The notes: generated by a model not told the origin, from the sequence alone. 64,000 nt of DNA from Candidatus Marinacidobacterales bacterium (GCA_965197495.1 OZ240210.1:2876671-2940670); one strand, 5' to 3'. Counted from the first letter of the stretch, positions 1 to 62,771 are shown. A program made the numbers and translations.

Positions 1-45
1 AAGGCTCGTCCAGGAGACTGGATCGTCGGGATCACGCCAAAAAAG

Positions 46-1412
46 GGATGTGTCCCGAGGTTCGTGGAAAAAGAACGGCGCCCTCCGCTCCGTCATCAGA
101 GCATCATATCAGGCGGCAACCTCCGCGTGTTCGAGAACCTCGCTCAGACGTTGGTAGCCGTCGATGCGTCGTAGTTGAATCTGGCCAGAGGCGATAAGCC
201 CAAACAGCAAAGCGACCGCGGACTCCTCGCTGGAGAACGACGCTTGGGTTTTCGTCCGGCGTCGAAACTCGCGGTTGAGATTCTCCAGAGCATTGGTCGT
301 TCGAATCGATTTCCACATGGCACGAGGGAATTCATAGAAGGTCAGCAGCTGATTACCGGCCTCCTCTAGGCTTCGGACGACGGCCGGCGCGAGAGGCGTC
401 CACTTGGCGACGAGCTCGTCATAGGCTTTGCGAGCATCGATCCCGTTCTTGGCGTAGACGATCCGGTTGTAGTCACGCCGGAGCTCACGGCGTGCGTGCG
501 CCGGGCAATGTTCGAGCAAGTTGGCGCGCTTGTGCTCGGTACATCGCTGCAACCGGCACCCCGGCCACTTCTCCAGCGCTTTCGTCAGCCCCTTGTGGCC
601 GTCGCTGATCACTAGCTTGGGAGCCCGGAGTCCTCGAGCCTGAAGTCCCTCCAGCACGGAGCCCCAATGCGTCGAGGCTTCGCTCACCGCCAGACGCAAT
701 GACAACAGACGTTTCTGCCCGTCTGGCGCGACCCCGAGCGCGACCAGTACGGGTACGCTGATCACACGTTTCGCCATCCGCACTTTCAGGAGGAAGCCGT
801 CCAGGTAAACGATCGCGTAGACCTCCTCGCTGAGAGCACGGTTCTGCCATTCCTCGAAGCGCTCCTTCAGCCGGCTAACCACGCGAGACACCGCGCTCTT
901 CGATAGGTGCTCCTCACCGAGCAGTGGTTTCAGCGCTTTGCGGATCCGGCGGCTATTCGCGCCCGACAAGTACGTCCCCAAGATCGCCTCGTCGACCTCA
1001 CGAGTCCGGCGTGCATACCGGGGCAACAGCTCGCTCCTGAACTCTGTCGTCTCTCCCGTTTCCTCGTCTCGCACGCGGGCTCGTGGTACACGGAGCTCGC
1101 GAGTTCCCACCGACATCGTCACGCGACGGGTTTCGGCTCCGTTGCGATACCCACGGCGGTCTTCCGCACGCTCGTAGCTACGACACCCCAGCGCTTGGTC
1201 GACTTCTTCCTCGAGCACGACCTCGATCGCCTCCAGTACCCGCTTACGCAGCCGAAGTTGGACGAACTCCCGGTACTCGCTTACAGACTCCTTCGATATG
1301 GTGGTAGGCTTCTTCATGGCGTAATCCTCCTCCTCGCCTTTCCAGGCGCGGTTTCGTTTTGTTTAACCGGAGGTTACGCCATTCTTATTTCCACGGGAAG
1401 CGGGACAGATCC
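46..1412 (-). mobile_element. IS256-family insertion sequence with imperfect 26-bp terminal inverted repeats and an 8-bp target-site duplication CAAAAAAG
   Basis: Left IR at 45-70 is GGGATGTGTCCCGAGGTTCGTGGAAA; the right end 1388-1413 reverse-complements to GGGATCTGTCCCGCTTCCCGTGGAAA. CAAAAAAG is found at both 38-45 and 1413-1420. Confidence 0.75.
109..1317 (-). CDS. IS256-family (Mutator-like) transposase, 402 aa
   Basis: The translation has the YLDGFLLKVR, ISDGHKGL, CTEHKRANLL and NALENLNREFRRRTK motifs typical of IS256 transposases, and the ORF spans almost the whole element. Confidence 0.85.
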   Translation of the reverse strand: MKKPTTISKESVSEYREFVQLRLRKRVLEAIEVVLEEEVDQALGCRSYERAEDRRGYRNGAETRRVTMSVGTRELRVPRARVRDEETGETTEFRSELLPRYARRTREVDEAILGTYLSGANSRRIRKALKPLLGEEHLSKSAVSRVVSRLKERFEEWQNRALSEEVYAIVYLDGFLLKVRMAKRVISVPVLVALGVAPDGQKRLLSLRLAVSEASTHWGSVLEGLQARGLRAPKLVISDGHKGLTKALEKWPGCRLQRCTEHKRANLLEHCPAHARRELRRDYNRIVYAKNGIDARKAYDELVAKWTPLAPAVVRSLEEAGNQLLTFYEFPRAMWKSIRTTNALENLNREFRRRTKTQASFSSEESAVALLFGLIASGQIQLRRIDGYQRLSEVLEHAEVAA

Positions 1413-1413
1413 C

Positions 1414-1897
1414 AAAAAAGCTCGACAACCAACTTGCTTACGCGATGAGAGTAGATGAATCGCTGACCTTCACGGAGTATTGGTCGGACCGTAGGTTCAG
1501 AGGGAAGCGTCCCCGGTGGCGCAAAGCAGCCCCAATTGTAGAGAAGTGTGGTGATAACTGCTATGCACCGACTAGCGACGGCGAGTTCCGGCAGCTGCGG
1601 TCCAGGCACTGGGATCACGGTAGAAATCGCGAGAATCGGCGGCAGAAGATGACGGACCTCGGGGGCGAGCGCGTCCTTGTCGGACGTCGGTTCTGTTACT
1701 TCGGGGGCGACGCGATTCCTTTCCCTGCTGACGTCTCCTTCCGACCACCCGCTCGGTTCAACCGTGTCAACTTCACCGACGAGGAGAGGGGCGGGCTGCA
1801 AGAATTTCTCGAGGATCTCCCTCAGGGTATCCAGGGCAAACCGAGGAACTGGCCGAAGGATGACGGGTTCTGGCGGGAAAGTGAGCGATGCGGCTAA
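1414..1897 (+). CDS. C-terminal part of hypothetical 'gene A'; its reading frame stays open upstream across the IS256 insertion point and off the window start, so the gene is split by IS256
   Basis: Removing the IS and one TSD copy gives a frame (KARPGDWIVGITPKKLDNQLAYAMRVDESLTFTEYW...) with no stop from position 1 onward. The ORF-track Met at 1445 is probably internal. Confidence 0.45.
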
Positions 1898-2736
1898 TTC
1901 TGAGCCGTAAGGGATTCGACTCATCAAGCGGTGGTTGTCCCAGTCCGATCTTCCCTGACTGCTCCATGATCGCGCTTCCGATCCCAGACAAGCGGTCCCG
2001 TGTGCGTTACCTGGATCTTTCTTGGCGTGGACGCAATCTCGGAGAGCTAGTTGCGAAACTCACTCGCGGGAAGCAGAGAAGCGACTACCGGGCCCATCTC
2101 GACCCCGACCTGAGGCGGGACATTTGGCCAAGAAAGCCAGGTTGGTGTCCAACGCTCGGTCAGATTGGAAGCGCACAGGGGCACCTCCGAAAACAGGGTG
2201 TTGGGCCCGGAGATTTGTTCCTATTCTGGGCATCATTTCGGCGAGTCGATGAGGACCTCCGATGGAAGGGCGGCACCGAGCATCACATTTGGGGCTGGCT
2301 CCAAATCGGCGATGTAGTGTCCGTGGATGAGGTCCTTCGCAACGGCGGCAAGGAATGGGGCTGGGCAATGACACATCCGCACTTGTCCTTCCCGCGCGAT
2401 CCTACGAATACGCTCTACATCGCGTCCGGTGAACTTTCACTGCCTGGGCCTCCGACTCCAGGCGCTGGCGTCTTCGATTATGTCGATGATGCTCGCCGCC
2501 TCACTGCCCCGGACGCGACGAAGCCATCGGAGTGGTCTTTGCCCATCGGATTCTTACCGAAGGGAAGACCGCCACTCAGCTATCACAAGTCGCCAGATCG
2601 CTGGTCCCAATGCGGTCAAAGGGCTCGGCTTCGCTCCGTCTCGCGTGGGCAAGAGTTTGTCCTCGACCTTGCACTGTATCCCGAGTTGATCGGTTGGTTG
2701 ACGGAGATTATCGCTGGGAGCCGAAGGACTAGGTGA
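1888..2736 (+). CDS. Hypothetical 282-aa protein translationally coupled to gene A; possible PUA-like beta-barrel segment
   Basis: It shares an ATGcggcTAA 10-nt overlap with the upstream ORF. The N-terminus reads MRLILSRKGFDSSSGGCPSP, and a GPGDLFLFW...HHIWGWLQIGDVVSVDEV segment resembles EVE/ASCH-type folds. The fold assignment is tentative. Confidence 0.45.
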   Translation: MRLILSRKGFDSSSGGCPSPIFPDCSMIALPIPDKRSRVRYLDLSWRGRNLGELVAKLTRGKQRSDYRAHLDPDLRRDIWPRKPGWCPTLGQIGSAQGHLRKQGVGPGDLFLFWASFRRVDEDLRWKGGTEHHIWGWLQIGDVVSVDEVLRNGGKEWGWAMTHPHLSFPRDPTNTLYIASGELSLPGPPTPGAGVFDYVDDARRLTAPDATKPSEWSLPIGFLPKGRPPLSYHKSPDRWSQCGQRARLRSVSRGQEFVLDLALYPELIGWLTEIIAGSRRTR

Positions 2737-2837
2737 GTCGATGAGCGACAAGAACCGAGAAGAACTCAAAAAGAAGGCAACCGCATACCACGAAGAAGCG
2801 CATGCAGTCGTCTGCCGCCATTACGGAGCCTGCATCG

Positions 2838-2960
2838 GGTTCCCCCGTACGCGCGCGGGGAGATACGGTCTAGAAACGGGATGCCACACTCCCGGCGAGG
2901 ACTTGGATCCAGGTCCTGACGGCGTAGCCGGGGCAAGAGGCGTGCCGCGCGTGGACCTGC
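2838..2960. repeat. About 120-bp dispersed repeat ('repeat E'), second copy at 24415-24535
   Basis: The string gggttcccc(c)gtacgcgc...cagaaacgggatgcca..ctcccggcga.gac.tggatc...ggggcaaga recurs at about 85% identity in the two places. Confidence 0.6.
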
Positions 2961-3139
2961 TGCCTGGTTGGGATCGTTGTTAGGACACGCCGCCAACCTC
3001 CTCTGGGTGTCCGATCGTGTCCGAACGTGGGGCCTTCTAAGCCAGACCGCGTGGCTGTTGACTTCAGGCGGAAATCGATATCCGCGGTAGCTCGGCGTGT
3101 CGCTTTTCATCCGCCCAGTCTGTCAGGCGCCAGCTTCAT

Positions 3140-3505
3140 TTGACAGTACCTCCGCGTGTTATTTGCTATCCGATGATGCTACGATCATCTCGTTATGCCC
3201 CGACGCAAGATACGTGTCCTTCTGGCTGGCTGGGTCAACCGCCAGCAGCAGGATGTGATCGACCACTTGCGAGAGGAGAACCGTGTGCTCCGAGCCGGGC
3301 TTCGGGGCAAGCGTCTCAGTCTCTCTGACGACGATCGGCGCAGGCTCGCCGTCAAGGCCCAGGCTTTGGGCCGCGAGGCGCTGGCCCAGATTGCGTCCGT
3401 TGCCACACCCGCTACGCTTCTGCGCTGGTACCGCTACCTCGTCGCAGCCAAGTACGATGGCAGCAAGAACCGGAGCCCAGGCCGACCTCCGAACGGCGAC
3501 GGAGG
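3140..3505 (+). pseudogene. 5' fragment (about 110 codons) of a diverged IS481-like transposase gene; no terminal IR and 3' truncated
   Basis: The stretch [33 protein letters not shown]...[26 protein letters not shown] is about 90% identical to the N-terminus of the intact transposase at 29578-30654, and homology ends near 3505. Confidence 0.7.
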
Positions 3506-3607: not shown

Positions 3608-3726
3608 TTAGTCGAGTCTCGCCATCTCTAGCGAGCCTTCCTGCGACCGATAGTAGTTCATCTCGTACTCGACGGGGGTGACATTTCCGATAGGCTCCAA
3701 GAGTCGTTGCGTGTTGTACCAATGCC
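3608..3726 (-). pseudogene. C-terminal tail (about 39 codons) of another rve-type (IS481/IS3-like) transposase, cut off by the IS481-like insertion at 3727
   Basis: The translation GHWYNTQRLLEPIGNVTPVEYEMNYYRSQEG* matches the conserved integrase C-terminal pattern (YN..R.H..L...TP.E...NYY). Upstream of it the frame runs into IR sequence. Confidence 0.5.
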
Positions 3727-5157
3727 CCCCGTCCTGTGCCAAAACTCGGCCCTTTTGAAATAGGCCATAAATCAGCAGCTTAGTGTCTGTGTTTGCGCCG
3801 GGGCCAAGGGCCGTAGGCTTTACAATCGTCTGGCCCGAGGGTGTTATCTTCAGCTCCATGATGACGTACCACGTGCAATTCCTACTGCTCGTTCTAGCTG
3901 GCTGGGTCAACCGCCAGCAGCAGGATGTGATCGACTACCAGCAAGAGGAGAACCGTGTGCTCCGAGCCGGGCTTCGGGGCAAGCGTCTCAGGCTCTCGGA
4001 CGACGAGCGGCGCAGGCTCGCGGTCAAGGCCCAGACTTTGGGCCGCGAGGCGCTGGCCCAGATTGCGTCCGTTGCCACACCCGCTACGCTTCTGCGCTGG
4101 TACCGCCACCTCATCGCAGCCAAGTACGATGGCAGCAAGAACCGGAGTCCAGGCCGACCTCCGACGGCGAAGGACATCCGTGAGCTCATTGTGCGCGTGG
4201 CGCGGGAGAACCCGACGTGGGGATATACGCGCCTGCGAGGCGCACTCAAGAACCTAGGACATGAACTCGGACGCAACACTATCAAGAGGATCCTCGCCGA
4301 GCACGTATCGCTCCTGCGCCGGAGCGGGGCAGGAGCATGTCGTGGAGCACCTTCATCAAGGCTCATTGGGGCGCCATCGCTGCGACAGACCTGTTCACCG
4401 TCGAGGTTGTGAACCCGTTCGGGCTCGTCCGCTACCATGTCCTGTTTGTCATCGATATCGCCACTCGCTGCGTGTGCATCGGTGGGATAACGTCGGACCC
4501 CAACGGGGAGTGGATGGAGCAGGTGGCAAGAAACCTCACTGACATGTGGGATGGTTTCCTCCTTGGCAAGCGATACCTCATCCACGACCGGGACCCGCTA
4601 TTCACCGAGGCGGTACGTGGGCTGTTGAGAGATTCAGGCGTGAAGCCCCTTCGCCTTCCCGCTAATAGTCCGAATCTGAACGCATATGCGGAAAGATTCG
4701 TTCTCTCCATACGTCGAGAGTGTCTCGACCGCTTCGTACCTCTCAGTGAGCGACACCTGCGCACAGCGGTACCGAATACGTAGTGCACTATCACACAGAA
4801 CGGAACCACCAAGGTCTCGGCAACGAGCTCCTCACACCTCTGCCGGCAAGCGCGAATGACGCTGGCCCCATCGTGTCGCGAGAGCGACTTGGGGGCATTC
4901 TCAACTACTACTGCCGTGCCGCGTAGATGGTCGCCGGCGACGGTAGCCCCTCGGCGGGCTCGACCGGCGTAGCGTGGAAACAGCTTCAGGAACACGCTTC
5001 GATATTCGCTCTCGACTAGGAGGTCATCTGCATGGTGACGACCCGCCCGCCCAAGACGATTGTAAAGCCCACGGCCCTTGGCCCGGTCGCAAACACAGAC
5101 ACTAAGTTGCTGATTTATGGCCTATTTCAAAAGGGCCGAGTTTTGGCACAGGACGGG
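3727..5157 (+). mobile_element. IS481-like element copy 1, about 1431 bp with roughly 110-bp near-perfect terminal inverted repeats; the transposase is inactivated by two 1-bp deletions
   Basis: It is co-linear and over 98% identical with the intact copy at 29453-30885. A G is lost near 4300 (gcacgtatcg vs gcacggtatcg) and an A near 4780 (gcggtaccgaat vs gcggtaaccgaat), which splits the ORF into 3783-4412, 4337-4783 and a downstream piece. Confidence 0.85.
3840..4925 (+). pseudogene. IS481-family DDE transposase gene with two frameshifts
   Basis: This is the comparison with the 381-aa ORF at 29509-30654 described above. Confidence 0.8.
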
Positions 5158-5164
5158 ATAACGT

Positions 5165-5407
5165 CTATTTGCCGTCGCGTCCCTTACGGTACTTGTCTCG
5201 CAGCTTCTGGGTAAACCGCTTGAGTCTGGCCTTGGCGTGCTCGATGTCTGGCTGTGCGTCCCGCCAGGCGTCCTTGGAGCGAGGTTTGACCTCCTCGTTA
5301 AACACACGTGTGGCGTTGGTTAATGTCTCTTTGGCTTTAGCTCGTACCTCCGGACGACGTGCTAGTTCTCGTGCAGCGCGGATGGCGAGACGTCGCAGGA
5401 GGGTCAT
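5165..5407 (-). CDS. Hypothetical small basic protein of 80 aa
   Basis: It is an ORF only, directly abutting the IS end at 5157, with no recognisable domain. Confidence 0.2.
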   Translation of the reverse strand: MTLLRRLAIRAARELARRPEVRAKAKETLTNATRVFNEEVKPRSKDAWRDAQPDIEHAKARLKRFTQKLRDKYRKGRDGK

Positions 5408-5589
5408 GGCTCACTCTAGTATAGACGGAGCCTTCCTTCCCAAATGATGATCGCAACGACTAAGAGCACGTGGGTCACGGAGAGAAAGCGCTTGAATTCA
5501 CGAGAATTGCCACTATGCCCCAGGCTGGTCAAAATACTTGAGCGCCCAGCGGGTCAGCAGTTTGCAGCTTTCCAACGGCTGCTTGAATC

Positions 5590-5720
5590 CGGCATCGCGG
5601 TCGGATACGTATTCCAGTTCAGCGGAAGGAGTCGCGATGAACTGGAAGACCATGCTGAGCTCGTCGTGTCCAAAAACACAAGCGAACTCAAGATCTGCGT
5701 GCCGAGACGTTTCGGATGAT
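5590..5720 (+). repeat. Fragment of the 5' region of an IS481 lineage-3 element (like 62120-62230) fused to a copy of short repeat A
   Basis: cggatacgtattccagttcagcggaaggagtcgcgATGAACTGGAAGACCATGCT matches the sequence upstream of and at the start of the transposase at 62177, and is followed by cgtcgtgtccaaaaacacaagcgaactcaag. Confidence 0.6.
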
Positions 5721-6062
5721 GATTGCCTGCAAGCACGCCCGCCAACAGACCCTTTCCACTATCGCCGTGGACAAGCCCACCGTCCATTGAAGGGAAGTGT
5801 CACGAGCAGCCGGAAGTAGTTCTCACCGGGGCGATGTCCCGGAAGTGGCGTCGCTCAGATGCCGATTGATGCGGCTTGTGGCCGCGAGCTCCGTGCGGAT
5901 TCCGTGACCACACGGTTATGTTGGCAAGCATGGCCGTCGTGGGCGTCAGCGTGATGTGGAATCGGACCGCCTGATTCACCTGATCATGGTAGGCTCCATC
6001 CGTTAAGAATCAGGGACGGCACCCGGCGAAAACTTGATGCCCTCGGAGACATTTCCCGGACA

Positions 6063-6497
6063 CGAATTCGAGGTTTGACCAATTCGAATTCCGCTATTCG
6101 CCTTCTCCTCAGACGCGATCTAGGCGTTAAGCGTCTTCTCATTGTCTGCGCGATTAAGCGCAAAAATGGACACGATAAGCCCCCAAATCGCCCCAAATTG
6201 CCCGTTGATGGCCTGTTTTGCTCTGTTTCTGATCGTTTCCAGCCAAGAATCGGAAGCTCCACTCGAGCCTGCCGACTGCGATAGCCGGAAAGGTGTTCCC
6301 GTCGACGAAACGTCCGCCGATGAGACGTAAAGCCTTTTGCAACAATGCGTAACGGCCGGAGCCGCCTCCGGAGGGTTTACGACACGGCCCTCTTTCAGGC
6401 GTCCAGGAGGTTGAGGTTTGCCGTATAGAAAAGCTGATTGAAGCAAATTCGATTCCGGCTCGAACGACCACCCGTCGATGATGCGTGCGTGGGCCAG
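6063..6497 (+). repeat. About 435-bp repeat C, copy 1; an inverted partner lies at 12812-13243
   Basis: The reverse complement of 12812-13243 aligns with this segment over its whole length at roughly 85-90% identity, with one indel of about 15 bp. Confidence 0.75.
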
Positions 6498-6705
6498 CAC
6501 GTGACAGAAAGTGACTCACGCCCGGCGCAGCTCGTTCGTAGCGCGCAAGGTGTCCAAGCTCGACATCGTCCAGGCTACGCTCGGGGTTCCGTTGTAGCGA
6601 CGCGGTATCGAGGAGATGGCGAAGCGCTTCGAGATCGGTGCACCCGAGCTCGAGGGCGTGGGCGACGGTCTCACGAAGCTTGTCGTATCCGTGCTTGCGC
6701 CCTCG

Positions 6706-7007
6706 TCCTGTGCCAAAACTCAGCCCTTTTGAAATAGACCATAAATCAGCAGCTTAGCGACTGGGCCAAGGGCCCTTAGGCTCTACAGTTACCCAAAACC
6801 CGCGGTCGACGTTCGAGAGCCGCGGCCGTTTCACCGAACGGCGGAGGACGGCGAGCTGCTGCCGAAGAGCGACATTGTCGAGAGCCAGCTCGCGACGAGC
6901 CTTGAAGACGGAGATGAGAGCGCGAACAAACGACGAAATCAAGCAGGCATGGTGCCGGCAGACTAATCAAGTTTGGGGCGCCCGGATGAATAAATAGAAG
7001 GCACAGG
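6706..7007 (-). mobile_element. 302-bp MITE-like element with termini GTCCTGTGCC...GGCACAGG; its left subterminal 70 bp equals the IS481-like IR, and it carries a 62-codon relic of a transposase N-terminus
   Basis: Near-identical copies lie at 17105-17413 and 18503-18788. The internal ORF reads MISSFVRALISVFKARRELALDNVALRQQLAVLRR, an HTH-type transposase N-terminus. Confidence 0.7.
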
Positions 7008-7018
7008 CGGCAGAGGCG

Positions 7019-8041
7019 ATTCACGCCACTCGTGGCAGTACGCCGCGCCTGAACCAGAACGCGCTGGTGTTTCTTGCGGCCGACAAGGTGCGGCTTCAGG
7101 ATCTCGAGGACGCGATTCGCCGGTATCTGGCGTGGGAATCCATCGTTGAGGACAAGAAGGTCCTGAACCTGGACCAGCAGCAACTCAAGCAGGCCGAAGC
7201 CCAGCAGCAAGCGGCGAACGGTACTGCGACGGCACAACTGCCTGAGACGTATCAGTGGGTCCTCGTGCCCACGCAGCGTACGCCGCAGGAGGCCATGCAG
7301 TGGCAGGTACTGAGGCTCGGAGGTCAGGATCCGTTAGCAGTAAGGGCCTCGAAGAAGCTGCGTGCGGACGAGCTGTTGCTGACGAGTCTCGGGGCCACCG
7401 TGCCCAGAAAGTACCTGGACGACATTCCGCTGTGGCGTGGAAACCACGTTGACGTGCGCCAGCTCACCGAGGATTTCGCTCGCTACCTATATCTTCCGCG
7501 CTTGGCCGATAGCAAAGTACTCGTACGGACTATCGAAGACGGCATCGGATTGCTCACTTGGCAGACCGATACCTTCGGGTTCGCAGAGAGCTTTGACGAG
7601 ACCGATGTCCGGTACCGTGGTCTCCGTGGTGGGCAGGTCCTTAGGCTCGCTGCGGGTGCGTTGGGGATGCTCGTGAGACCAGACGCCGCGCACACACAAT
7701 TGGACGCCGAGGTTCTCCCCAGCAAACCGGAGACTGGCACGAGCCCACCCACGATACCGAGCACCGACAAGTCGCCGGTAGAGCCACTAGGCAAAGCTCC
7801 GGAGCGCCTGACGCGGTTTCATGGAACGGTGCGGCTTGCCCCTGCCCGCATCGGCCGGGATGCCGGCCGGATCGGCGAGGAGCTCATCGCGCATCTCTCG
7901 GGCCTTGTCGATGCAGACGTGCAGGTGACCCTAGAGATTGAGGCGCACATGCCAAATGGCGCGCCTGAGCAGGCCGTTCGGACCGTCACCGAGAACGCGC
8001 GGACACTGAAGTTCATGAGTCAAGGGTTCGAGAAGGAGTAG
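7019..8041 (+). pseudogene. C-terminal about 340 codons of a large DUF499-like (defence-island ATPase family) gene, 5'-truncated by the MITE at 6706-7007
   Basis: The frame is open from the MITE boundary (a stop lies inside the MITE end) and reads ...NQNALVFLAADKVRLQDLEDAIRRYLAWESIVEDKKVLNLDQQQLKQAEAQ...YQWVLVPTQ. The family assignment is from memory of DUF499 C-termini. Confidence 0.5.
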
Positions 8042-8172
8042 GCTTCTCGTGAAGACCCAGAAGGAGTCCCTTTGCGGAAAATCGTGTCCTGAACAACCAG
8101 AAGAGGACGGTGGCTTCTGTCCGTCTTACCGGAAAGCTCACTCTCGAAGGGGACCGTTTTATGGGAGTAAGG

Positions 8173-8535
8173 TTAGGTGACGTGAGTATCCAAGGCAACA
8201 TCAAACCACTTCGATCGCTCGTTGAGTCCCTTCAGGTTCGTGGGTCGTGGAATCGAAGTTGCTCCGGTTCTCGGAGTCGACGTTCCTTCCTCATCAGCAC
8301 CTCCTTCGCTTTTCGAAGAACAATTCTGAGCCTCTTCATCGCCGGGAAACGGGCCTGGAACCAGACGTTCGACCTCGCACAGCTCTCCGATCAGGCGAAG
8401 CACTTCGGAGCACGCCTGCGGGTAGTGCTCGCTGGCTTCATCGAACTTCCGTTTGACGTGCGCCCAGCAATGGGCGAGTCGAAGCTCGGGGGCATCGCGA
8501 TCACTCGCTGCTTTTCTGGTGTTGTGGATGGTCAC
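8173..8535 (-). pseudogene. IS66-family transposase (TnpC) internal/C-terminal fragment
   Basis: It carries the HCWAHVKRKFDEA motif characteristic of IS66 TnpC, and no full-length ORF is present. Confidence 0.6.
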
Positions 8536-8596
8536 ACGCGTGACAGAAAGGTCATTCTAGATCCGAGCTGTCGGGAATCGAGCGCAGCTTTCGGTA

Positions 8597-10963
8597 TCAG
8601 AAGCGAAACAGCTTCGTGAACTTGACCGCGAACGTCCTGTTCAACAGGATGGGAAATCCATCCTCGTTGGTGAGCCGGCCGTCGCTATAAACCACGAAGA
8701 GGTCGCTCCCTGGTTCGTATTCCCACCGGAATCGCACGTTGGAGCTCAGCGTGTTGCTCGTGGAGTTCCACTGAAAAAGCGCTCCCACGAACATGCGGGG
8801 TGACATCGAGTATGTGATCCGGCTGCTCACGAGGCGGGCCGCGAAATCCCCTTCCTCGAGGCTCACCCAGTTGAGCGAGAGTCGCGGCTCGAGCGAGAAC
8901 TTCGGTGTCACTTCGATGCGACCGTTGAACGCGAGCTCGTTGCGGCCGCCGCTGAAGAAGCTTCCCGTACGGTAGCTGACGAAGCCCGGCACCGGTCGCT
9001 GCGCTCCGAACCGGTACGCAACGTGGACGTCCTGGAAGTCGTAGCCGCCGATGGGCAGGATGATGCCGTCCGAGATCTCGAACTCCTCGGCCAGGAACTC
9101 GAACTGCGGGTTGTACTCGACGGTTAGCTCGTCGCCGGCCTCGAACTCCGCTTTGAATTGGGCCTGAGCACGACGTGTCTGAAGCTTTCCGGTGGGCTCG
9201 CCGGTGATGTAGTCGAAGGTTCCTTGGAATACGAACCTCCGGACGAGGTCGATCGAAGCGGGCCGTGGGCTGAACCGTGCCTCCACGAAACTGCGGGTAA
9301 ACGCCTGCCGACTCGTGAACCCGAGCTCCGGCCGAAAAGCCTCGCCCACTTTGAGGCGCTGGACCTGCAGGCCATAGCGATCTCCGTTGTAGTCGAATCG
9401 TCCGAGATAGCTGGTCTCGTCCCCAACGATCTGCGTACCGGTGGCGAGTGGTGTGTGGCTCAGCGCGTAGTAGGTGTTGATGGTCACGTTGGTACCGAAG
9501 AAGAAGTTGCCATCCAGGCCGAAGAGAGAGTTCGACGTTCCGGGCTCGGACAGCGACGTCGTGCGGTGGGTCGCGATGACGCCGATATCGCTTCGGCGAA
9601 GGATGTCCCGCCGGAACCGCAGCACAGCGAAATTGGTGGGCTCCACGAAACCCTCGACGCCTCGGGTCTGAATGTTCAGAGCGCCAACCCGGAACGGGCC
9701 GGCACGGCCGGTCACCCGCCCTCCCACCTGAATGGGGTCCACGCCGCTCGACGTGAGCCCGATGCGGCGGCTGAAGAACATGATCGGCGTCAAGTTCCCG
9801 ATCGACCTACCCGGACGAAAGCCGAAGTCCGGTCGGCTCTGCACGCCAGCAAAGGAGAAGATACTCGCCCCTTCGAGAAAGAACTCTCGTTTCTCCGGGA
9901 AGAACAGGCTGAAACGGGTCAGGTTGACCTGCTGTTGATCCTCCTCGACCTGCGCGAAGTCGGTGTTGTAGGTGAAGTCGGCAATGAGACCCCTGGTCAG
10001 CCCGTACTTGACATCGAATCCGGCGTCCGCGTTCCAGTCGTTCGACACGACGGGCTCCGCGTCATTGTTGGTTACGGACGCCGTGATGCCGTAGGCCTTG
10101 AGCTCCAGATTCCGCGACGATGCTGGAGCCTCCAGCCCGACCAGCGTCGCGGATTCCGACATCCGGTAGACCCCCCTTAGGCCGTGCGACCGCGCAACGA
10201 GGGACAGGTAAGAGTCCTCGTTCTTCCACTTGACCGCGCGGCGAATATTGATGCTCCAGACCTGATCCCTCCCAGCCTTGTACCGGAGAGACTTGAACGG
10301 AACGGCTATCTCCACAATCCAGCCCTGCTCGAACGTCGAAGCCTTCACGTCCCAGACCGTGTTCCAGTCCCGATTGATCGCCTGGCCCTCGTCACCGAAC
10401 TGCTGGTCTCGGAGCGCCCCGAGCGGATTCGTCTGGAACATGAAGCCATTCCGGCGGTCGTAGAACGTGTCGAACACCACCGTGACGCTCTCGTTCTGGT
10501 AGATGCCGAAATTGTCCCGCCGCATTTCGTTGACGACCATCCTCTCCGGGTGGCTGTCCCAGCAGCGCATGCCGACGTAGATGTTCCTGTCGTCGAAAAA
10601 AACCCAGGCCTCGGTTTTCTCCGTAGCGGGCTCGCCCTCGTCGGGCACCTGCTGGATGAAGTCGCTGACCGCAGTTACCCGGGTATAGATGGCGTCGTCC
10701 AGCTTGCCATCGAGGACGAAGGGCTCGCTGAGACGGTTCGCGCGAAGAGTCACTCGTCCCTGGTCGTCGCGAGCCACCACTTCGGGCGGCTCTGGCGCGG
10801 GTGGTCCGTGCAGGTCGACGTCTGCGGGAGTGTCTTCATCGTGCCCGTCATCACGGTCGTCTGCCCTTGCCTGCGCGGCCAGCGTCAGTGCGAGCAGAAC
10901 TGACGCCGCGACACACCAACCCACGGGTGCTTCCGCCATTAAATGTTGGTGATTTGTACGCAT
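8597..10963 (-). CDS. Outer-membrane protein with an N-terminal CBM9-like domain and a DUF5916-type beta-barrel; signal peptide present
   Basis: The 788-aa ORF has an N-terminal hydrophobic leader, RANRLSEPFVLDGKLDD / WDSHPERMVV family-9 CBM-like segments, a long alternating beta-strand region, and a C-terminal ...FTKLFRF aromatic end. Confidence 0.55.
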   Translation of the reverse strand: MRTNHQHLMAEAPVGWCVAASVLLALTLAAQARADDRDDGHDEDTPADVDLHGPPAPEPPEVVARDDQGRVTLRANRLSEPFVLDGKLDDAIYTRVTAVSDFIQQVPDEGEPATEKTEAWVFFDDRNIYVGMRCWDSHPERMVVNEMRRDNFGIYQNESVTVVFDTFYDRRNGFMFQTNPLGALRDQQFGDEGQAINRDWNTVWDVKASTFEQGWIVEIAVPFKSLRYKAGRDQVWSINIRRAVKWKNEDSYLSLVARSHGLRGVYRMSESATLVGLEAPASSRNLELKAYGITASVTNNDAEPVVSNDWNADAGFDVKYGLTRGLIADFTYNTDFAQVEEDQQQVNLTRFSLFFPEKREFFLEGASIFSFAGVQSRPDFGFRPGRSIGNLTPIMFFSRRIGLTSSGVDPIQVGGRVTGRAGPFRVGALNIQTRGVEGFVEPTNFAVLRFRRDILRRSDIGVIATHRTTSLSEPGTSNSLFGLDGNFFFGTNVTINTYYALSHTPLATGTQIVGDETSYLGRFDYNGDRYGLQVQRLKVGEAFRPELGFTSRQAFTRSFVEARFSPRPASIDLVRRFVFQGTFDYITGEPTGKLQTRRAQAQFKAEFEAGDELTVEYNPQFEFLAEEFEISDGIILPIGGYDFQDVHVAYRFGAQRPVPGFVSYRTGSFFSGGRNELAFNGRIEVTPKFSLEPRLSLNWVSLEEGDFAARLVSSRITYSMSPRMFVGALFQWNSTSNTLSSNVRFRWEYEPGSDLFVVYSDGRLTNEDGFPILLNRTFAVKFTKLFRF

Positions 10964-11943: not shown

Positions 11944-12155
11944 CAACATATCTGGACTCCTCAATCAACACCTTTCTCAAAAAAGTCTTCCTCAGAGCTG
12001 CTCGTCCAAATCGGTGACGAGTGGGTCAGACTGCAAACATATCTACGGCCTCAGTGAGGAGCGTCTTGGGTGCTCCGGGCCATGACGGGAAATCCGCGCG
12101 CGAGGAGCCAATCACTTTGAGCGACCTCTGAGGGCCAGTGTTGCTATCGGCTTGA

Positions 12156-12217
12156 CCCCGTCCTGTGCCAAAACTCGGCCCTTTTGAAATAGACCATAAA
12201 TCAGCAGCTTAGTGTCT
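12156..12217 (+). repeat. Solo IS481-like terminal inverted repeat (62 bp) with no element body
   Basis: ccccgtcctgtgccaaaactcggcccttttgaaatagaccataaatcagcagcttagtgtct matches the IS481-like IR and is then followed by unrelated sequence. Confidence 0.7.
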
Positions 12218-12811: not shown

Positions 12812-13243
12812 GCACGCATTATCGACGGGTGGTCGTTCGAGCCGGAATCGAAGTTGCTTCAATCAAATTTTCTATACGGCAATCTCAACCTCCTGGACGC
12901 TTGAAAGAGGGCCGTGTCGCAAACCCTCCGGAGGCGGCTCCGACCGTTACTCATTGTCGCAAAGGGCTTTACGTCTCATCAGCGAATGTTCGTCGACGGG
13001 AACATCTTTCCGGCTATCGCAGTCGGCAGGCTCGAGTGGAGCTTTCGGTTCTTGGCTGGAAACGATCAGAAACAGAGCTAAATAGGCCATTAACGTGCAA
13101 TTCGGGGCGATTTTGGAGCTTATCGTGTCGTTTTTCCACTTAATCGCGCAGACAATGAGAAGACGCTTAACGCCTAGATCGCGCCTGAGGAGAAGGCGAA
13201 TAGCGGAATTCGAATTGGCCAAACCTCGAATTCATCCAGCGGA
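12812..13243 (-). repeat. Repeat C copy 2, the inverted partner of 6063-6497
   Basis: This is the alignment described under 6063-6497. Confidence 0.75.
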
Positions 13244-16760: not shown

Positions 16761-16986
16761 GATGCGCGAAGCGAACAAACTCCGGATTCTCGGCTAACGG
16801 GCCCAGCGTCGAGTGCCGCGAGCGACTCGGCGGCCTACTATCGTGCAGCTGCCTGAGTAGATACGTTCGAGTGCCGTCCAAGCCGCCCCGTGGGTTTCGT
16901 ATCGTCGTGGCATTGACCTCGGCTGGCGGCCCATCGAATCCTCGCTTCGCGCAGATCCGGTCATTGACCCTCCACAGGCCGATGTC

Positions 16987-17023
16987 GAGCTCGACGTACT
17001 ATTTGCACCATACGGGTTATTCG
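16987..17023 (+). repeat. 37-bp direct repeat, copy 2
   Basis: This is the repeat described under 15225-15262. Confidence 0.75.
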
Positions 17024-17104
17024 CCGGACGGCGGGGCGCGCCAGTTGGACGGAACGGATGGTCTGGAGGAGAGGTCTGCTCGGGGTCGCCTATCGCAGAA
17101 CCGC

Positions 17105-17413
17105 GTCCTGTGCCAAAACTCAGCCCTTTTGAAATAGACCATAAATCAGCAGCTTAGCGACTGGGCCAAGGGCCCTTAGGCTCTACAGTTACCCAAAACC
17201 CGCGGTCGACATTCGAGAGCCGCGGCCGTTTCACCGAACGGCGGAGGACGGCGAGCTGCTGCCGAAGAGCGACATTGTCGAGAGCCAGCTCGCGACGAGC
17301 CTTGAAGGCGGAGATGAGAGCGTGAACAAACGACGAAATCAAGCAGGCATGGTGCCGGCAGACCGGAGACTAATCAAGTTTGGGGCGCCCGGATGAATAA
17401 ATAGAAGGCACAG
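17105..17413 (-). mobile_element. MITE-like element, copy 2 (309 bp)
   Basis: It is over 97% identical to 6706-7007 and has the same embedded 62-codon ORF (17154-17342). Confidence 0.7.
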
Positions 17414-17469
17414 ACCGATTTGCGCTATCATGAATCAACCCAAGGCCATCGACCCGACACAATTTCCTC

Positions 17470-18189
17470 ATGAGTATGCTGCAGTCTTTTCAATGGTTGA
17501 CGCTTGCTATCACCGCGGTCGGGGTCGTGGGTTGCAGTTCCTCCATGTCCCCATCCTCGACCACGGAACCCGAGTCATCTCCACCGGCCGAGACTGCTGA
17601 ACCCGAGGCGAGAGCCGAGTACACCGTCACTTTCGATGCTTCCTGGAGTAAATCGACCCATCCCGAAGACTTTCCTCCCAACCCACACTTCTCCGGATTG
17701 ATCGGTGGCACGCACAACGACGACATTCGCTTCTGGATGCCCGGAAGGAAGGCGTCGGATGGGATCAAAGCCATGGCCGAAAGGGGTCTTAAAACCCCTC
17801 TCAACGAAGAGATTCGAGCGGCTCGCGACGAGGGAACGGCGGACAGGCTTCTTTCAGGTGATGGCATTCCTCGATCGCCTTCAAGCGTGTCTCTCGATTT
17901 CGCGATCCGGCGCGATTACACTCTGGTGACGTTGGTCTCGATGGTGGCACCGAGCCCCGATTGGTTCACCGGGGTTTCGGCCTTGAGCCTTCTCGAAGGA
18001 GGCCAATGGGTCGAGGAACTAACAGTGGAGCTCTTTGCTTACGACGCAGGCACGGACAGCGGAACGACTTACAACTCCGCCAACGATCCCACCTCACCTC
18101 GCGAGTCGATCCAGCGAATCGACGGACGTCCGCTTGCGGTTGGCGGCCAAGTCGCTCCGGTGGGGACCTTCACCTTTACTAGGCGCTAG
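17470..18189 (+). CDS. Spondin_N-domain lipoprotein
   Basis: It has a lipoprotein signal (LTLAITAVGVVGC) followed by YTVTFDASWSKSTHPEDFPPNPHFSGLIGGTHN, which is characteristic of the bacterial spondin_N domain. Confidence 0.6.
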   Translation: MSMLQSFQWLTLAITAVGVVGCSSSMSPSSTTEPESSPPAETAEPEARAEYTVTFDASWSKSTHPEDFPPNPHFSGLIGGTHNDDIRFWMPGRKASDGIKAMAERGLKTPLNEEIRAARDEGTADRLLSGDGIPRSPSSVSLDFAIRRDYTLVTLVSMVAPSPDWFTGVSALSLLEGGQWVEELTVELFAYDAGTDSGTTYNSANDPTSPRESIQRIDGRPLAVGGQVAPVGTFTFTRR

Positions 18190-18337
18190 GCTCACGCTTG
18201 GTGCGAGCGGGCCAGTCGGCAGGGACCGGTTTCATCGGACGACAAAACGCTGCAATCGTCGTGGTTTTGCTCATACCGACGGCGCAACTCCTCCACCGTT
18301 CGATCGATGTCGTCTCCAGCAACGCAGCAGAGTCCAT

Positions 18338-18400
18338 GCCCGTCGTGTCCAAAAACACAAACGAACTCAAGACCCACGCGCCGGGACGTTTCGGATTAGA
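18338..18400 (+). repeat. Short repeat A copy (cgtcgtgtccaaaaacacaaacgaactcaagacc...cgtttcggat)
   Basis: It is one of at least eight copies; the others are at 5662-5720, 15434-15466 (rc), 24323-24381, 33318-33375, 34010-34140 (rc, long form), 36803-36930 (long form) and 36962-37005. Confidence 0.7.
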
Positions 18401-18502
18401 GGTGTCTAGGCTTGGTTGTGCCTTCTATTTATTCATCCGCCAGCCCCATGGGTCGGAAGTCAGCCCTGCGGCGCGAAATACCCTGGATTCTGCGCGGATT
18501 CA

Positions 18503-18788
18503 TTTGAAATAGACCATAAATCAGCAGCTTAGCGACTGGGCCAAGGGCCCTTAGGCTCTACAGTTACCCAAAAACCCGCGGTCGACGTTCGAGAGCTGCG
18601 GCCGTTTCACCGAACGGCGGAGGACAGCGAGCTGCTGCCGAAGAGCGACATTGTCGAGAGCCAGCTCGCGACGAGCCTTGAAGGCGGAGATGAGAGCGCG
18701 AACAAACGACGAAATCAAGCAGGCATGGTGCCGGCAGACCGGAGACTAATCAAGTTTGGGGCCCGGATGAATAAATAGAAGGTACAGG
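18503..18788 (-). mobile_element. MITE-like element, copy 3, truncated at the left end; it lies next to an inverted fragment of the MITE right end at 18395-18440
   Basis: It aligns with 6728-7007, and ccttctatttattcatccgc at 18421 is the reverse complement of the MITE right end. Confidence 0.6.
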
Positions 18789-19526: not shown

Positions 19527-19616
19527 ACTTACGGCCCTTGGCCCGGCCGCAAACACGGACACTAAGCTGCTGATTTATGGTCTATTTAAGAGGGCCGAGT
19601 TTTGGCACAGGACGGG
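19527..19616 (-). repeat. Solo IS481-like terminal IR (about 90 bp) abutting the stop codon of the CotH gene
   Basis: ggcccttggcccggccgcaaacacggacactaagctgctgatttatggtctatttaagagggccgagttttggcacaggacggg is the IR, and no transposase lies to its left. Confidence 0.7.
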
Positions 19617-19621
19617 CTCGG

Positions 19622-23582: not shown

Positions 23583-23590
23583 CCGAGCCG

Positions 23591-23765
23591 GTCCTGTGCC
23601 AAAACTCGGCCCTTTTGAAATAGACCACAAATCAGCAGCTTAGTGTCTGTGTTTGCGACCGAGCCAAGGGGCGTGGGCCTTACAATCGTCTGGCCAAAGG
23701 GTGTTATCTTCAGATCTATGATGACGTACCACGTGCCATTCCTACTGCTCGTTCTGGCTGGTGAC
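23591..23765 (+). repeat. IS481-like left end (IR plus the first about 25 codons of the transposase), with no body beyond about 23765
   Basis: gtcctgtgccaaaactcggcccttttgaaatagaccacaaatcagcagcttag...ATGATGACGTACCACGTGCCATTCCTACTGCTCGTTCTGGCTGG is followed by unrelated sequence. Confidence 0.65.
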
Positions 23766-29205: not shown

Positions 29206-29452
29206 GTCGTGCCGATGTCGTATTGCGCCTGGTAGCGCTCGATGTTCCGCCATAAATCGGCAAGCCCGCAGTGCAAGCCAACGGGCGTGGTGCTGTTGTG
29301 AATCTCGGTAATTTGACAGCAATGGCACCGCCCGCGTGGGCGGAGGTCATCGGGGAGTGACCGAAATCGTTCGTTCACTCGAAAGTACCCCATGGACTCA
29401 TCTCCTCGGCTCCACGCCCGCGTGCGGCGTCTCACCGCGCGGCAGGCACGCA

Positions 29453-30885
29453 CCCCGTCCTGTGCCAAAACTCGGCCCTTTTGAAATAGGCCATAAATCA
29501 GCAGCTTAGTGTCTGTGTTTGCGACCGGACCAAGGGCCGTAGGCTTTACAATCGTCTGGCCCGAGGGTGTTATCTTCAGCTCCATGATGACGTACCACGT
29601 GCAATTCCTACTGCTCGTTCTAGCTGGCTGGGTCAACCGCCAGCAGCAGGATGTGATCGACTACCAGCAAGAGGAGAACCGTGTGCTCCGAGCCGGGCTT
29701 CGGGGCAAGCGTCTCAGGCTCTCGGACGACGAGCGGCGCAGGCTCGCGGTCAAGGCCCAGGCTTTGGGCCGCGAGGCGCTGGCCCAGATTGCGTCCGTTG
29801 CCACACCCGCTACGCTTCTGCGTTGGTACCGCTGCCTCATCGCAGCCAAGTACGATGGCAGCAAGAACCGGAGTCCAGGCCGACCTCCGACGGCGAAGGA
29901 CATCCGTGAGCTCATTGTGCGCGTGGCGCGGGAGAACCCGACGTGGGGATATACGCGCCTGCGAGGCGCACTCAAGAACCTAGGACATGAACTCGGACGC
30001 AACACTATCAAGAGGATCCTCGCCGAGCACGGTATCGCTCCTGCGCCGGAGCGGGGCAAGAGCATGTCGTGGAGCACCTTCATCAAGGCTCATTGGGGCG
30101 CCATCGCTGCGACAGACCTGTTCACCGTCGAGGTTGTGAACCCGTTCGGGCTCGTCCGCTACCATGTCCTGTTTGTCATCGATATCGCCACTCGCTGCGT
30201 GTGCATCGGTGGGATAACGTCGGACCCCAACGGGGAGTGGATGAAGCAGGTAGCAAGAAACCTCACTGACATGTGGGATGGTTTCCTCCTTGGCAAGCGA
30301 TACCTCATCCACGACCGGGACCCGCTATTCACCGAGGCAGTACGTGGGCTGTTGAGAGATTCAGGCGTGAAGCCCCTTCGCCTTCCCGCTAATAGTCCGA
30401 ACCTGAACGCATATGCGGAAAGATTCGTTCTCTCCATACGTCGAGAGTGTCTCGACCGCTTCGTACCTCTCAGTGAGCGACACCTGCGCACAGCGGTAAC
30501 CGAATACGTAGTGCACTATCACACAGAACGGAACCACCAAGGTCTCGGCAACGAGCTCCTCACACCTCTGCCGGCAAGCGCGAATGACGCTGGCCCCATC
30601 GTGTCGCGAGAGCGACTTGGGGGCATTCTCAACTACTACTACCGTGCCGCGTAGATGGTCGCCGGCGACGGTAGCCCCTCGGCGGGCTCGACCGGCGTAG
30701 CGTGGAACAGCTTCAGGAACATGCTTCGATATTCGCTCTCGACTAGGTGGTCATCTGCATGGTGACGACCCGCCCGCCCAAGACGATTGTAAAGCCCACG
30801 GCCCTTGGCCCGGTCGCAAACACAGACACTAAGTTGCTGATTTATGGCCTATTTCAAAAGGGCCGAGTTTTGGCACAGGACGGGG
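29453..30885 (+). mobile_element. IS481-like element copy 2, intact (1433 bp), with about 110-bp terminal IRs beginning CCCCGTCCTGTGCC
   Basis: It has a complete single transposase ORF, and its IRs are near-perfect inverted copies over about 110 bp (e.g. ...cagcagcttagtgtctgtgtttgcgaccgg / rc of ...ccggtcgcaaacacagacactaagttgctg). Confidence 0.85.
29578..30654 (+). CDS. IS481-family DDE transposase with an integrase core domain
   Basis: It has an HTH N-terminus ([25 protein letters not shown]), a DDE core (LFVIDIATR...IHDRD...FTE) and an rve C-terminus ([17 protein letters not shown]). The start may be 29509 or the MMTYH Met at 29578. Confidence 0.85.
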
Positions 30886-61092: not shown

Positions 61093-62177
61093 TCATGCGG
61101 CTTCCCGATGGTAGAAACGGAGCAACCCGCCAAGCCGTTCACGGCACTGAATGGCGCCCTCTAGACCGTTAGTCTGAGCGATCGCGGACTCGGGGAACAA
61201 TAAGAGATTGTCCTTGCCTTGATGATTCCTCTCGTGGTGATAATGGGTGACGTACTCCTTCAGCGCGTGACGCAGCGAGTTCTCCCCGAACAAGATGAGC
61301 TTCGAGAGACATTCCTCTTTGACCGATCTCACCCAGCGCTCCGCGAACGCATTCAAATCCGGGCTCCGCGCGGGCAGCCTGATAGGCGTCACGCCAACGC
61401 CCTCAATGGTGTCCCGGAACGACTCGCAGAACTTGGAGTCCCGGTCGTGGATGAGATATCGGCTCGAGGAGAGAAAACCGATATCGGCCATGGTCACGTT
61501 GCGGGCCACTTGAATCATCCACGGTTCGTTCGGATGCGGCGTGATGCCGGCGATGTGGACGCGCCGGGTCGCGAGGTGCATGAAGAACAGAACGTAGTAC
61601 GTCACCAGCCCACCCTGAGTCCACACCTCCGCGGTGAAGAAGTCCGTCGCTGCAAGGACGTCCATATGCGAGCGGATGAACTCCGTCCAGGTGGTGGCCT
61701 TCTTTCGCTCAGGGGCAGGCGGTATGCCGTGACGTCTCAGAATGTTGCCGACGGTTTGGTCACTCACCTCATGCCCGAGCTTGGCTAACGCCCCGGCAAT
61801 CCGGTCGTAACCCCAGGACTTGTTCTCCTGGGCAAGACGCACCACCAACTCTTCGATGTCAGCGTCGACACGCGGCCGCCCTGGGTATTGACGGTTCTTA
61901 GAGCCGTCGAACTTCTTCGCCACAAGCCTCCGGTGCCAGCCCAGGAGCGTCTCGGGCTTCACAATATTCGCTACCACTTCGAGCGCCCGCTTGCCGAGAC
62001 GCTTTCCGATTTCAGCCAGTGTCCGCCGTTCGCCATCGGTCAAGCGCAAGCGACCCTTGATCTGATCCGAAGAATCCGATTCTCGACCACAAGATATTCG
62101 TTCCGCAGGAGAAGCTCCTCGTCCACGGATCCTGAGATATAGGCCAGCATGGTCTTCCAGTCCATCGCGACTCCTTC
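61093..62177 (-). pseudogene. IS481-family transposase, lineage 3 (about 60% identity to the 29578 copy), with a frameshift near 62040-62050
   Basis: The N-terminal 46 codons ([33 protein letters not shown]) at 62177-62040 continue as ...[19 protein letters not shown] in another frame. The rest has an intact DDE/rve signature (IHDRDSKF...YHHERNHQG). Element ends are at about 61085 and about 62400. Confidence 0.7.
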
Positions 62178-62421: not shown

Positions 62422-62771
62422 TGGTGGAGGCGGCGGGAATCGAACCCGCGTCCGAAGATCTTCTTCCGAGGCCTCTACATGCGTGTCCGGTTCCCGTTAA
62501 GCTTCACTTCCAATCAGTTAGGAGCCGGCAAGGACCTGATGGAAGTTATCCCCTAAGTTTCGCTGGACACGCGGGGCGAATGTCCGGCTAGCCCACCTGA
62601 ATGACGTTCTTCCCGAGCACGGCGGGCGAAACCCGAGAGAACGTAGCCGGCTTACGCGGCTAGAGCTAACTCTTGGTCAGCAATTGTGTGTTTTCCCACC
62701 GTTTAACGAGGGATGGGAGCTCGGCATGCCACCTCGAAATCAATTATCTCCGTCGAACCCAGGGCGCCCCC
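62422..62771 (-). ncRNA. ssrA: tmRNA (ssrA), 350 nt, with predicted tag peptide ADQELALAA
   Basis: The minus-strand 5' end is GGGGGCGCCCUGGGUUCGACGG...GGUGGCAUGCCGAG, the tag ORF is GCUGACCAAGAGUUAGCUCUAGCCGCGUAA, and the 3' end is GGACGCGGGUUCGAUUCCCGCCGCCUCCACCA. Confidence 0.85.

Follow-up and report, generated by a model that had tools for sequence, protein, structure and literature searches.

At the left edge of a 64,000-nucleotide stretch of the genome of a marine acidobacterium (Candidatus Marinacidobacterales bacterium, GCA_965197495.1, OZ240210.1:2876671-2940670; hereafter, the window), an insertion sequence (IS) of the IS256 family interrupts the first of two overlapping genes, designated A and B, which belong to the Pfam families Nmad2 and Nmad3, respectively. 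The locus is a new copy of a known but uncharacterized gene pair, broken by an ordinary IS insertion, and we regard the identity of both genes and the IS event as practically certain. As for function, we consider a conserved Nmad2-Nmad3 unit that senses or processes modified bases, likely in genetic conflict, the best explanation overall, with a probability of roughly 0.45.

An Nmad2 gene split by an IS256-family element

The features of the locus, in window coordinates, are as follows.

1-45, plus strand: 5' fragment of gene A (Nmad2), codons 35 to 49; frame 0 is open from position 1, and the start lies 102 nt upstream of the window
38-45: left copy of the 8-bp target-site duplication, CAAAAAAG; single copy at the empty sites of loci L001 and L003
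46-1412, minus strand: IS256-family insertion sequence, 1,367 bp; sole copy in the window, with boundaries from the empty-site alleles
46-71: imperfect terminal inverted repeat at the left IS end; 19 of its first 25 bases complement those at the right end
109-1317, minus strand: IS256-family transposase, 402 aa, intact open reading frame (ORF); NF033543 and PF00872 matches
1387-1412: right terminal inverted repeat of the IS
1413-1420: right copy of the target-site duplication, CAAAAAAG
1421-1897, plus strand: 3' fragment of gene A (Nmad2), codons 50 to 207 and stop; matches Pfam Nmad2 and is colinear with the intact 207-aa genes of L001 and L003
1888-2736, plus strand: complete gene B (Nmad3; 282 aa), sharing its first 10 nt with the 3' end of gene A

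A preliminary description of this DNA had recognized no named family for either protein, which turned out to be incorrect. The reconstituted window fragment of gene A matches Nmad2 (PF18753) with 105.4 bits (gathering threshold, 26.1; E = 3.6e-30) over profile positions 37 to 198 of 200, and the gene B product matches Nmad3 (PF18754) with 255.3 bits (threshold, 27; E = 8.3e-76) over the full profile (positions 1 to 247 of 247). The remainder of gene A was recovered from a longer contig containing the window (L002; ENA ERZ25072076), in which the frame stays open up to a GTG start codon 102 nt before window position 1; positions 8012 to 8158 of that contig encode MRIFAYILKVDSGFSPNPFHGWCTLACCKPAIRRKARPGDWIVGITPKK, corresponding to Nmad2 profile positions 2 to 49, and its upstream 34 codons add the N-terminal motif to the reconstituted protein. 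The gene therefore begins outside the window, as had been anticipated, the IS lies after codon 49, and the methionine encoded at 1445, already suspected to be internal, is residue 58.

The 402-aa transposase matches the equivalog-level NCBIfam model for IS256 (NF033543) with 313.8 bits (cutoff, 150) and Pfam Transposase_mut (PF00872; E = 4e-88), identifying it as a DDE transposase of the IS256/Mutator type. A script check of the end repeats (GGATGTGTCCCGAGGTTCGTGGAAA and GGATCTGTCCCGCTTCCCGTGGAAA) confirmed that inverted repeats are present, but with 19 matches among the first 25 bases, their earlier description as matching 26-bp repeats was generous. The two copies of the 8-bp duplication are identical, and the element has the terminal inverted repeats and the target duplication in the 8- to 9-bp range expected of the IS256 family. 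A length such as this one (1,367 bp), imperfect terminal repeats of ~25 bp, and an 8-bp duplication are typical of that family, and we noted no difference from it.

When positions 46 to 1420 are taken out, the two open segments join in a single frame (KARPGDWIVGITPKKLDNQLAYAMRVDESLTF...). The exact empty site, comprising the left flank, one CAAAAAAG, and the right flank, is present within an intact 207-aa gene A in two related assemblies, L001 (gene at 1336 to 1959) and L003, so that the duplication is more than a chance repeat. Nucleotide identity between L001 and the window lineage is 98.5 to 98.7% over 1.85 kb; L003, a Candidatus Marinacidobacterales metagenome-assembled genome, is 92% identical. 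In both assemblies, the same gene B comes after the intact gene A. Partial copies of the IS, with 96 to 98% identity, occur in the related contigs L003, L084, and L190. Both halves of the split gene are without stops or frameshifts, and the lineage-specific changes amount to 0 nonsynonymous and 7 synonymous, which is consistent with a recent insertion. Thus, the proposal of a recent, precisely definable IS256 insertion with an 8-bp duplication, whose excision restores a continuous frame and for which an empty-site allele might be found, was borne out in each of these respects. The insertion itself is routine, and its value lies only in offering a clear-cut case that can be dated and has an empty-site allele.

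The IS parts the conserved N-terminal motif from the remaining Nmad2 sequence and inactivates gene A. The window contains no intact Nmad2 gene: the N-terminal fragment reads into IS sequence, and the 150-aa ORF that starts at the methionine at 1445 is devoid of the invariant, Cys-rich N-terminal motif of the family. Invariant Nmad2 residues include D11, C27, C28, K29, P30, and R33, with C23, H112, and C206 nearly invariant. Gene B, on the other side of the overlap, is complete. Among 45 Nmad3 sequences, the invariant residues include R7, K8, D11, H70, D74, Q97, H99, D109, W135, W137, H163, H165, N174, Y177, Q255, and E256, and the window protein bears every invariant residue by construction, being the first row from which column conservation was read. 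Such an unusually large number of invariant polar and aromatic residues suggests an enzyme and not just a reader.

A scan of positions 1 to 3200 for promoters and terminators returned sites no more numerous than expected from shuffled sequence. Five nucleotides past gene B lies an 80-aa ORF (2741 to 2983, plus strand) with an HEEAH (HExxH) motif and a weak match to Peptidase_M41 (E = 0.043). L001 has just the first ~58 nt of it and L003 lacks it altogether, so that it is probably a gene remnant, not a third component of the cassette.

Nmad2 and Nmad3 as a recurring cassette

The 10-nt overlap of genes A and B (ATGCGGCTAA, 1888 to 1897), from which translational coupling had been proposed, is real and recurs elsewhere. 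Searches with Nmad3 yielded 80 genome loci, of which 22 have Nmad2 immediately 5' of Nmad3 in the same orientation, and a stop/start overlap of 1 to 20 nt was found in 20 of these 22 pairs. Of 80 metagenome loci recovered with Nmad2, 12 had too little sequence to tell; Nmad3 lies immediately 3' of Nmad2 in 40 of the 68 informative ones and not in the other 28, and the ~45 closest metagenome relatives are nearly all Nmad2-Nmad3 pairs. The two genes are thus co-encoded in relatives. In addition to these pairs, we identified full-length fusions in both orders (P0323 and P0348, Nmad2-Nmad3; P0281 and P0286, Nmad3-Nmad2), joined by low-complexity linkers rich in Pro, Ser, and Thr. Fusions in both orders are strong evidence that Nmad2 and Nmad3 act together, and we consider it very probable that they do. 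Another candidate fusion, P0141, looks like a frameshift artifact and was discarded, as was the idea that the two families are paralogues, for which a profile-profile comparison gave a probability of 0.2% and no detectable relationship.

With respect to its Pfam relatives, the window pair has the same order, size, and motifs as hundreds of homologues and differs only by the IS break. Clustering of 862 neighboring ORFs revealed no third gene common to paired loci. Homology among L001, L002, and L003 is limited to a cassette of 1.5 to 1.85 kb, and the flanks differ in all three. The Nmad3 family as a whole is large: a word-indexed search yielded 5,207 clusters at 90% identity, and an exhaustive profile search yielded 2,831 clusters at 50% identity, 1,191 of them with an E value of ≤1e-30. 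NCBIfam and PHROGs contain no model for either Nmad2 or Nmad3; both families are defined only computationally, and the cassette is named but functionally uncharacterized. In the gammaproteobacterial Proteobacteria bacterium 005FR1 (L033), a solo Nmad3 gene (10001 to 10849), a C-terminal Nmad3 fragment (12896 to 13141), and an Nmad2-Nmad3 pair (16948 to 18446) were found together within 8.5 kb.

Loss of Nmad2 is not confined to the window. Within the same IS-laden lineage, the gene was disrupted independently at least three times (the window, L084, and P0163): in L084, the ~58-bp terminal repeat of another IS stands in place of the first 39 codons (around 7452 to 7511), and P0163, found at L189 and L190, is a remnant that has lost both its ends, with no adjacent Nmad3 gene called at either locus. 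A further locus, L005, retains only Nmad2 profile positions 87 to 195. Despite the damage to Nmad2, Nmad3 is intact in the window, L084, and L005. This repeated loss of Nmad2 fits a dispensable accessory function. The P0163 remnants (L190, 947 to 5934; L189, 1844 to 6699) have as neighbors either a SIR2_2 protein with a 1,325-aa partner or an IS110 transposase with an N6_N4 methyltransferase-HNH fusion.

Genes associated with defense are found near several paired loci. On the 3' side of the IS-free allele, L001 (4087 to 12798) encodes DUF499 (1,002 aa), DUF7680, and DUF1156 (724 aa) proteins and an SNF2/PLD helicase; the L084 cassette is flanked by a type I-E CRISPR-Cas locus on one side and by HNH and PIN genes on the other; and the L083 cassette has IS elements and an RE_NgoFVII-like gene in its vicinity. 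Among 213 neighboring ORFs of 24 paired loci, PADLOC matches, obtained as pooled family counts, comprised type III and IIG restriction-modification, a CBASS (cyclic-oligonucleotide-based antiphage signaling system) cyclase with phospholipase, AbiEii, type IV restriction enzymes, HmaC, NsnAB, Cas I-E, and PD-T4-3. One pooled neighbor matched a type III methyltransferase with an E value of 0 and may be the DUF1156 protein of L001.

Solo Nmad3 genes, on the other hand, occur in conserved synteny unrelated to defense in Marinobacter (11 to 12 species) and Halomonas (5 species), with neighbors encoding a TRAP transporter, a luciferase-like oxidoreductase, a methyltransferase, a DinG-like helicase, and DAHP synthase. 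In Halomonas locus L024, the solo gene (10001 to 10846) lies 37 nt 3' of a gene for a 713-aa DinG-like helicase (7823 to 9964; DEAD and Helicase_C_2 domains); the same synteny is seen in L031, L045, L062, and L075 and hints at a link with DNA repair.

Nmad2 has other partners, too. In a second clade, found without Nmad3, the gene overlaps a ThsB-like TIR gene, and its clusters include 5-hydroxymethyldeoxyuridine (5-hmdU) DNA kinase, MazG/MazG_C, up to four TIR proteins, SLOG, thymidylate synthase with Nmad1, and UDG (e.g., L155, 3510 to 10080; also L144, L145, L153, L154, L157, L160, L162, and L166 to L169). These metagenomic clusters have a DS-4-like architecture and resemble the systems predicted by DefensePredictor. 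DS-4 itself was validated against phage in Escherichia coli (DeWeirdt et al., PMC13092281), and the products given for it in the supplement of that article are a thymidylate-synthase-like protein, a kinase, a 5-hmdU DNA kinase, a TIR protein, and Nmad2. Over 151 residues, the DS-4 Nmad2 protein and gene A share 39% identity, and both contain the N-terminal motif GFAPNPFHG.CTLA.CKP.IR...GDW. The window, however, is without TIR, 5-hmdU kinase, thymidylate synthase, and MazG genes, and Nmad3, the partner here, is not among the five DS-4 products in that supplement. DS-4-type gene co-occurrence was not seen around the window cassette, the 10 kb on each side of which contain transposases and ORFs without a Pfam match.

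For phages and plasmids, tblastn found no match for Nmad2 or Nmad3 among 50,697 phage genome records, and plasmid carriage was limited to six megaplasmid or chromid matches. Contigs listed in IMG/VR contain 5 Nmad2 loci and 17 Nmad3 loci, with both genes, in reverse order, on one of them (L187).

Predicted folds and proposed function

The AlphaFold2 model of the gene B product had a mean predicted local distance difference test score (pLDDT) of 95.0 and a predicted template-modeling score (pTM) of 0.92. For gene A, we used as a stand-in P0121, a homologue sharing 88% identity with the intact Nmad2 protein of L001; its model reached a pLDDT of 92.6 and a pTM of 0.88. Structure comparison of the latter returned YTHDC1 (6.4), PH1033 (5.6), the McrB N-terminal domain (5.3), ASCH (5.3), and VcaM4I (5.0). 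The beta-barrel core is similar in structure to several members of the PUA-like superfamily (EVE/YTH/ASCH), and both Nmad2 and Nmad3 are predicted to adopt a PUA-like fold, with distant similarity to known members. A resemblance to EVE/ASCH/PUA-like barrels had been suspected for gene B, on the basis of the segment GDLFLFW...IWGWLQIGDV, which forms a long beta-hairpin in the model (residues 110 to 145); the models support that suspicion and extend it to gene A, but the link is distant and reached significance neither in Foldseek nor in profile searches. By sequence, the PDB holds no solved structure for either family.

In modification-dependent restriction enzymes and RNA readers, the PUA-like fold provides a pocket for a flipped, modified base. 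In the McrB N-terminal domain, VcaM4I, PD-T4-3, and the EVE/YTH/ASCH readers, we have the nearest points of comparison, from which the Nmad pair differs in having no fused or adjacent nuclease or NTPase. EVE and YTH domains are also about half the size of Nmad3, whose many invariant polar residues suggest catalysis besides reading. Enzymes of the ASCH fold are known (the N4-acetylcytidine amidohydrolase YqfB of E. coli and the ASCH protein of Zymomonas mobilis), and their similarity to the Nmad proteins is weak.

We propose that Nmad2 and Nmad3 would act as one unit, probably as a complex, in which Nmad3 might provide the catalytic activity, of the hydrolase or glycosylase type, toward a modified base or nucleotide, and Nmad2 might be the sensing or targeting part, given its Cys-rich N-terminal motif and its TIR-effector partner in other systems. 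In genetic conflict, such a unit may recognize or process the noncanonical bases of invading DNA. These steps are not equally secure. That the pair recognizes or processes modified bases is a tentative proposal, to which we give somewhat less than an even chance, and a role specifically in antiphage defense is rather doubtful. More specific still, and quite unlikely in our estimation, is a self-contained antiphage system in which Nmad2 senses hypermodified phage DNA (e.g., thymidines derived from 5-hmdU) and Nmad3, as a PUA-fold glycosylase or de-modifying hydrolase, damages or strips that DNA. If true, the pair would parallel type IV restriction but without a nuclease, and Nmad2 would be a sensor shared by Nmad3 and TIR effectors of the DS-4 type.

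Several observations weigh against a modified-base unit with a role in conflict. Foldseek found no significant match for gene B in the PDB, EVE proteins ranking first at E values of 0.14 to 0.7 and template-modeling scores overall being 0.17 to 0.41; neither protein matched an EVE, ASCH, YTH, or PUA Pfam profile at an E value of ≤1; and the profile comparison of Nmad2 with Nmad3 was negative. The candidate active-site residues of both proteins were chosen by conservation, not by clustering in three dimensions. At the level of genomic context, PADLOC-DB v2.0.0 contains no family matching A, B, or the 80-aa ORF at an E value of ≤1, and 12 solo-Nmad3 loci examined as a control gave strong PADLOC matches as well (Cas1, HerA, and helicase models); since, moreover, the neighbor counts were pooled, we make no claim of defense-gene enrichment around the pairs. 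To this should be added the conserved non-defense synteny of solo Nmad3 in Marinobacter and Halomonas. Finally, the protection reported for DS-4 is that of the whole cluster, with no requirement for Nmad2 itself reported in the article text (PMC13092281), and the literature searched contained no functional study of the Nmad2-Nmad3 pair, DefensePredictor being the only work found.

That same solo synteny is the starting point for the main alternative, a housekeeping or repair function in which Nmad3, with or without Nmad2, would rid cellular DNA, RNA, or the nucleotide pool of modified bases or nucleotides that are damaged or unwanted, in a way comparable to YqfB, and in which defense neighbors are incidental to variable regions. 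It would explain why solo Nmad3 is syntenic among metabolic genes in 11 to 12 Marinobacter and 5 Halomonas species, why the Halomonas gene follows that for the 713-aa DinG-like helicase at a distance of 37 nt, and why one further solo locus sits amid housekeeping genes; the size of the family (the 2,831 clusters mentioned above), the absence of Nmad3 from phage genomes and PHROGs in our searches, and the PADLOC matches at the control solo loci point the same way. The paired form, however, is found in a different context in each close relative and is repeatedly disrupted, which is the behavior of a dispensable accessory cassette; no conserved housekeeping neighbor is common to paired loci; and the other partners of Nmad2 are the TIR and nucleotide-modification genes of a validated defense system. 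Overall, we consider a repair function rather unlikely. A role as writer, with the pair installing or elaborating a base modification on host DNA or RNA as restriction protection or epigenetic mark, appears improbable. It is suggested by the Pfam family name ("nucleotide modification associated"), by the Joint Genome Institute label of some members ("putative DNA base modification enzyme with NMAD domain"), and by Nmad2 paralogues that lie beside 5-hmdU DNA kinase, thymidylate-synthase-like, MazG, and Nmad1 genes, all of which belong to pathways for thymidine hypermodification. Yet the cassette contains no recognizable donor or cofactor enzyme (methyltransferase, kinase, glycosyltransferase, or radical SAM), both predicted folds are closer to readers than to writers, neither gene was found in the phage genomes, where hypermodification pathways concentrate, and losing gene A alone, repeatedly, would be odd for a two-step pathway.

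The preliminary description had also raised the possibility of a novel defense or toxin module. Defense is plausible, in view of the defense neighbors and the Nmad2 of DS-4, though weakened by the solo Nmad3 synteny; the module is not novel, both families having been named already; and its toxin half is without support. A toxin-antitoxin or abortive-infection pair, in which one protein is toxic and the other neutralizes it, would be in keeping with the tight stop/start coupling of the two genes, the variable genomic contexts of the cassette, and the frequent proximity of mobile elements. But B is kept intact where A is disrupted or absent and is widely found alone, so that it cannot be a toxin in need of A; together with the fusions, this rules out a toxic B neutralized by A. 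Single-chain fusions in both orders are atypical of such pairs in general, Pfam and structure comparison found no DNA-binding antitoxin domain or known toxin fold in A or B, and proteins of 207 and 282 aa exceed the sizes typical of type II pairs. All in all, a toxin-antitoxin function is highly improbable, and a conserved unit acting on modified bases remains the explanation that we favor.

IS-rich surroundings and the importance of intact copies

The locus had been placed at the edge of an IS-rich accessory region, a view that did not hold: the surroundings are an IS-rich genome with interspersed housekeeping genes, not a delimited island. Upstream of the window, contig L002 contains IS91, Y1, and ISL3 transposase genes, with a 636-aa ORF without a Pfam match (4659 to 6569) between those of the Y1 and ISL3 types, ~1.4 kb 5' of gene A. 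Downstream, an IS with HTH_32 and rve_3 domains is present in several copies. Of a 1.43-kb IS (HTH_32, HTH_21, and rve_3), two copies with 98.7% identity are located at 3724 to 5157 and 29450 to 30884; the transposase is split in the first (ORFs at 3783 to 4412 and 4337 to 4783) and consists of one 381-aa ORF in the second (29509 to 30654). The terminal repeat of an abundant IS, ~56 to 60 bp long, occurs at least 9 to 10 times in the window, and the same repeat end breaks the Nmad2 gene of L084. A repeat of ~200 bp, with 89 to 92% identity among copies, is found at 6801 to 6997, 17201 to 17404, and 18577 to 18778 of the window and at 7478 to 7681 of L002, the last copy lying ~330 nt 5' of the gene A start; it may be a miniature inverted-repeat transposable element or an IS fragment. 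Between 40 and 64 kb, genes for ribosomal protein S1, TypA/BipA, an M19 dipeptidase, and pyridoxal phosphate-dependent (PLP) enzymes, as well as the gene for transfer-messenger RNA (tmRNA), are found among further IS copies. We considered a genomic island anchored at the tmRNA gene and rejected it, as the S1, TypA/BipA, and metabolic genes lie between IS copies in this part of the window. The corresponding features are the following.

3728-3783, 5102-5159, 6704-6757, 12154-12212, 17104-17157, 19562-19620, 23584-23643, 29454-29509, and 30829-30884: copies of the ~56- to 60-bp terminal repeat
61093-62049, minus strand: IS transposase (HTH_32 and rve_3), directly beside the tmRNA gene
62422-62771, minus strand: tmRNA (ssrA) gene; Rfam match of 173 bits, tag peptide ADQELALAA

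With the window copy broken, it is the intact copies that matter, namely, those of L001 and L003 and the pair of the cultured strain Pseudomonas fluorescens PS662 (L064). Nmad3 is a large, functionally uncharacterized family, part of which is coupled or fused to Nmad2, and Nmad2 is in turn a component of DS-4, a system that has been validated but is mechanistically unexplained. If both proteins are indeed PUA-like, the pair would widen the known uses of modified-base reader folds, and it would offer a simple, two-gene entry point to what Nmad2 senses in DS-4-type systems.

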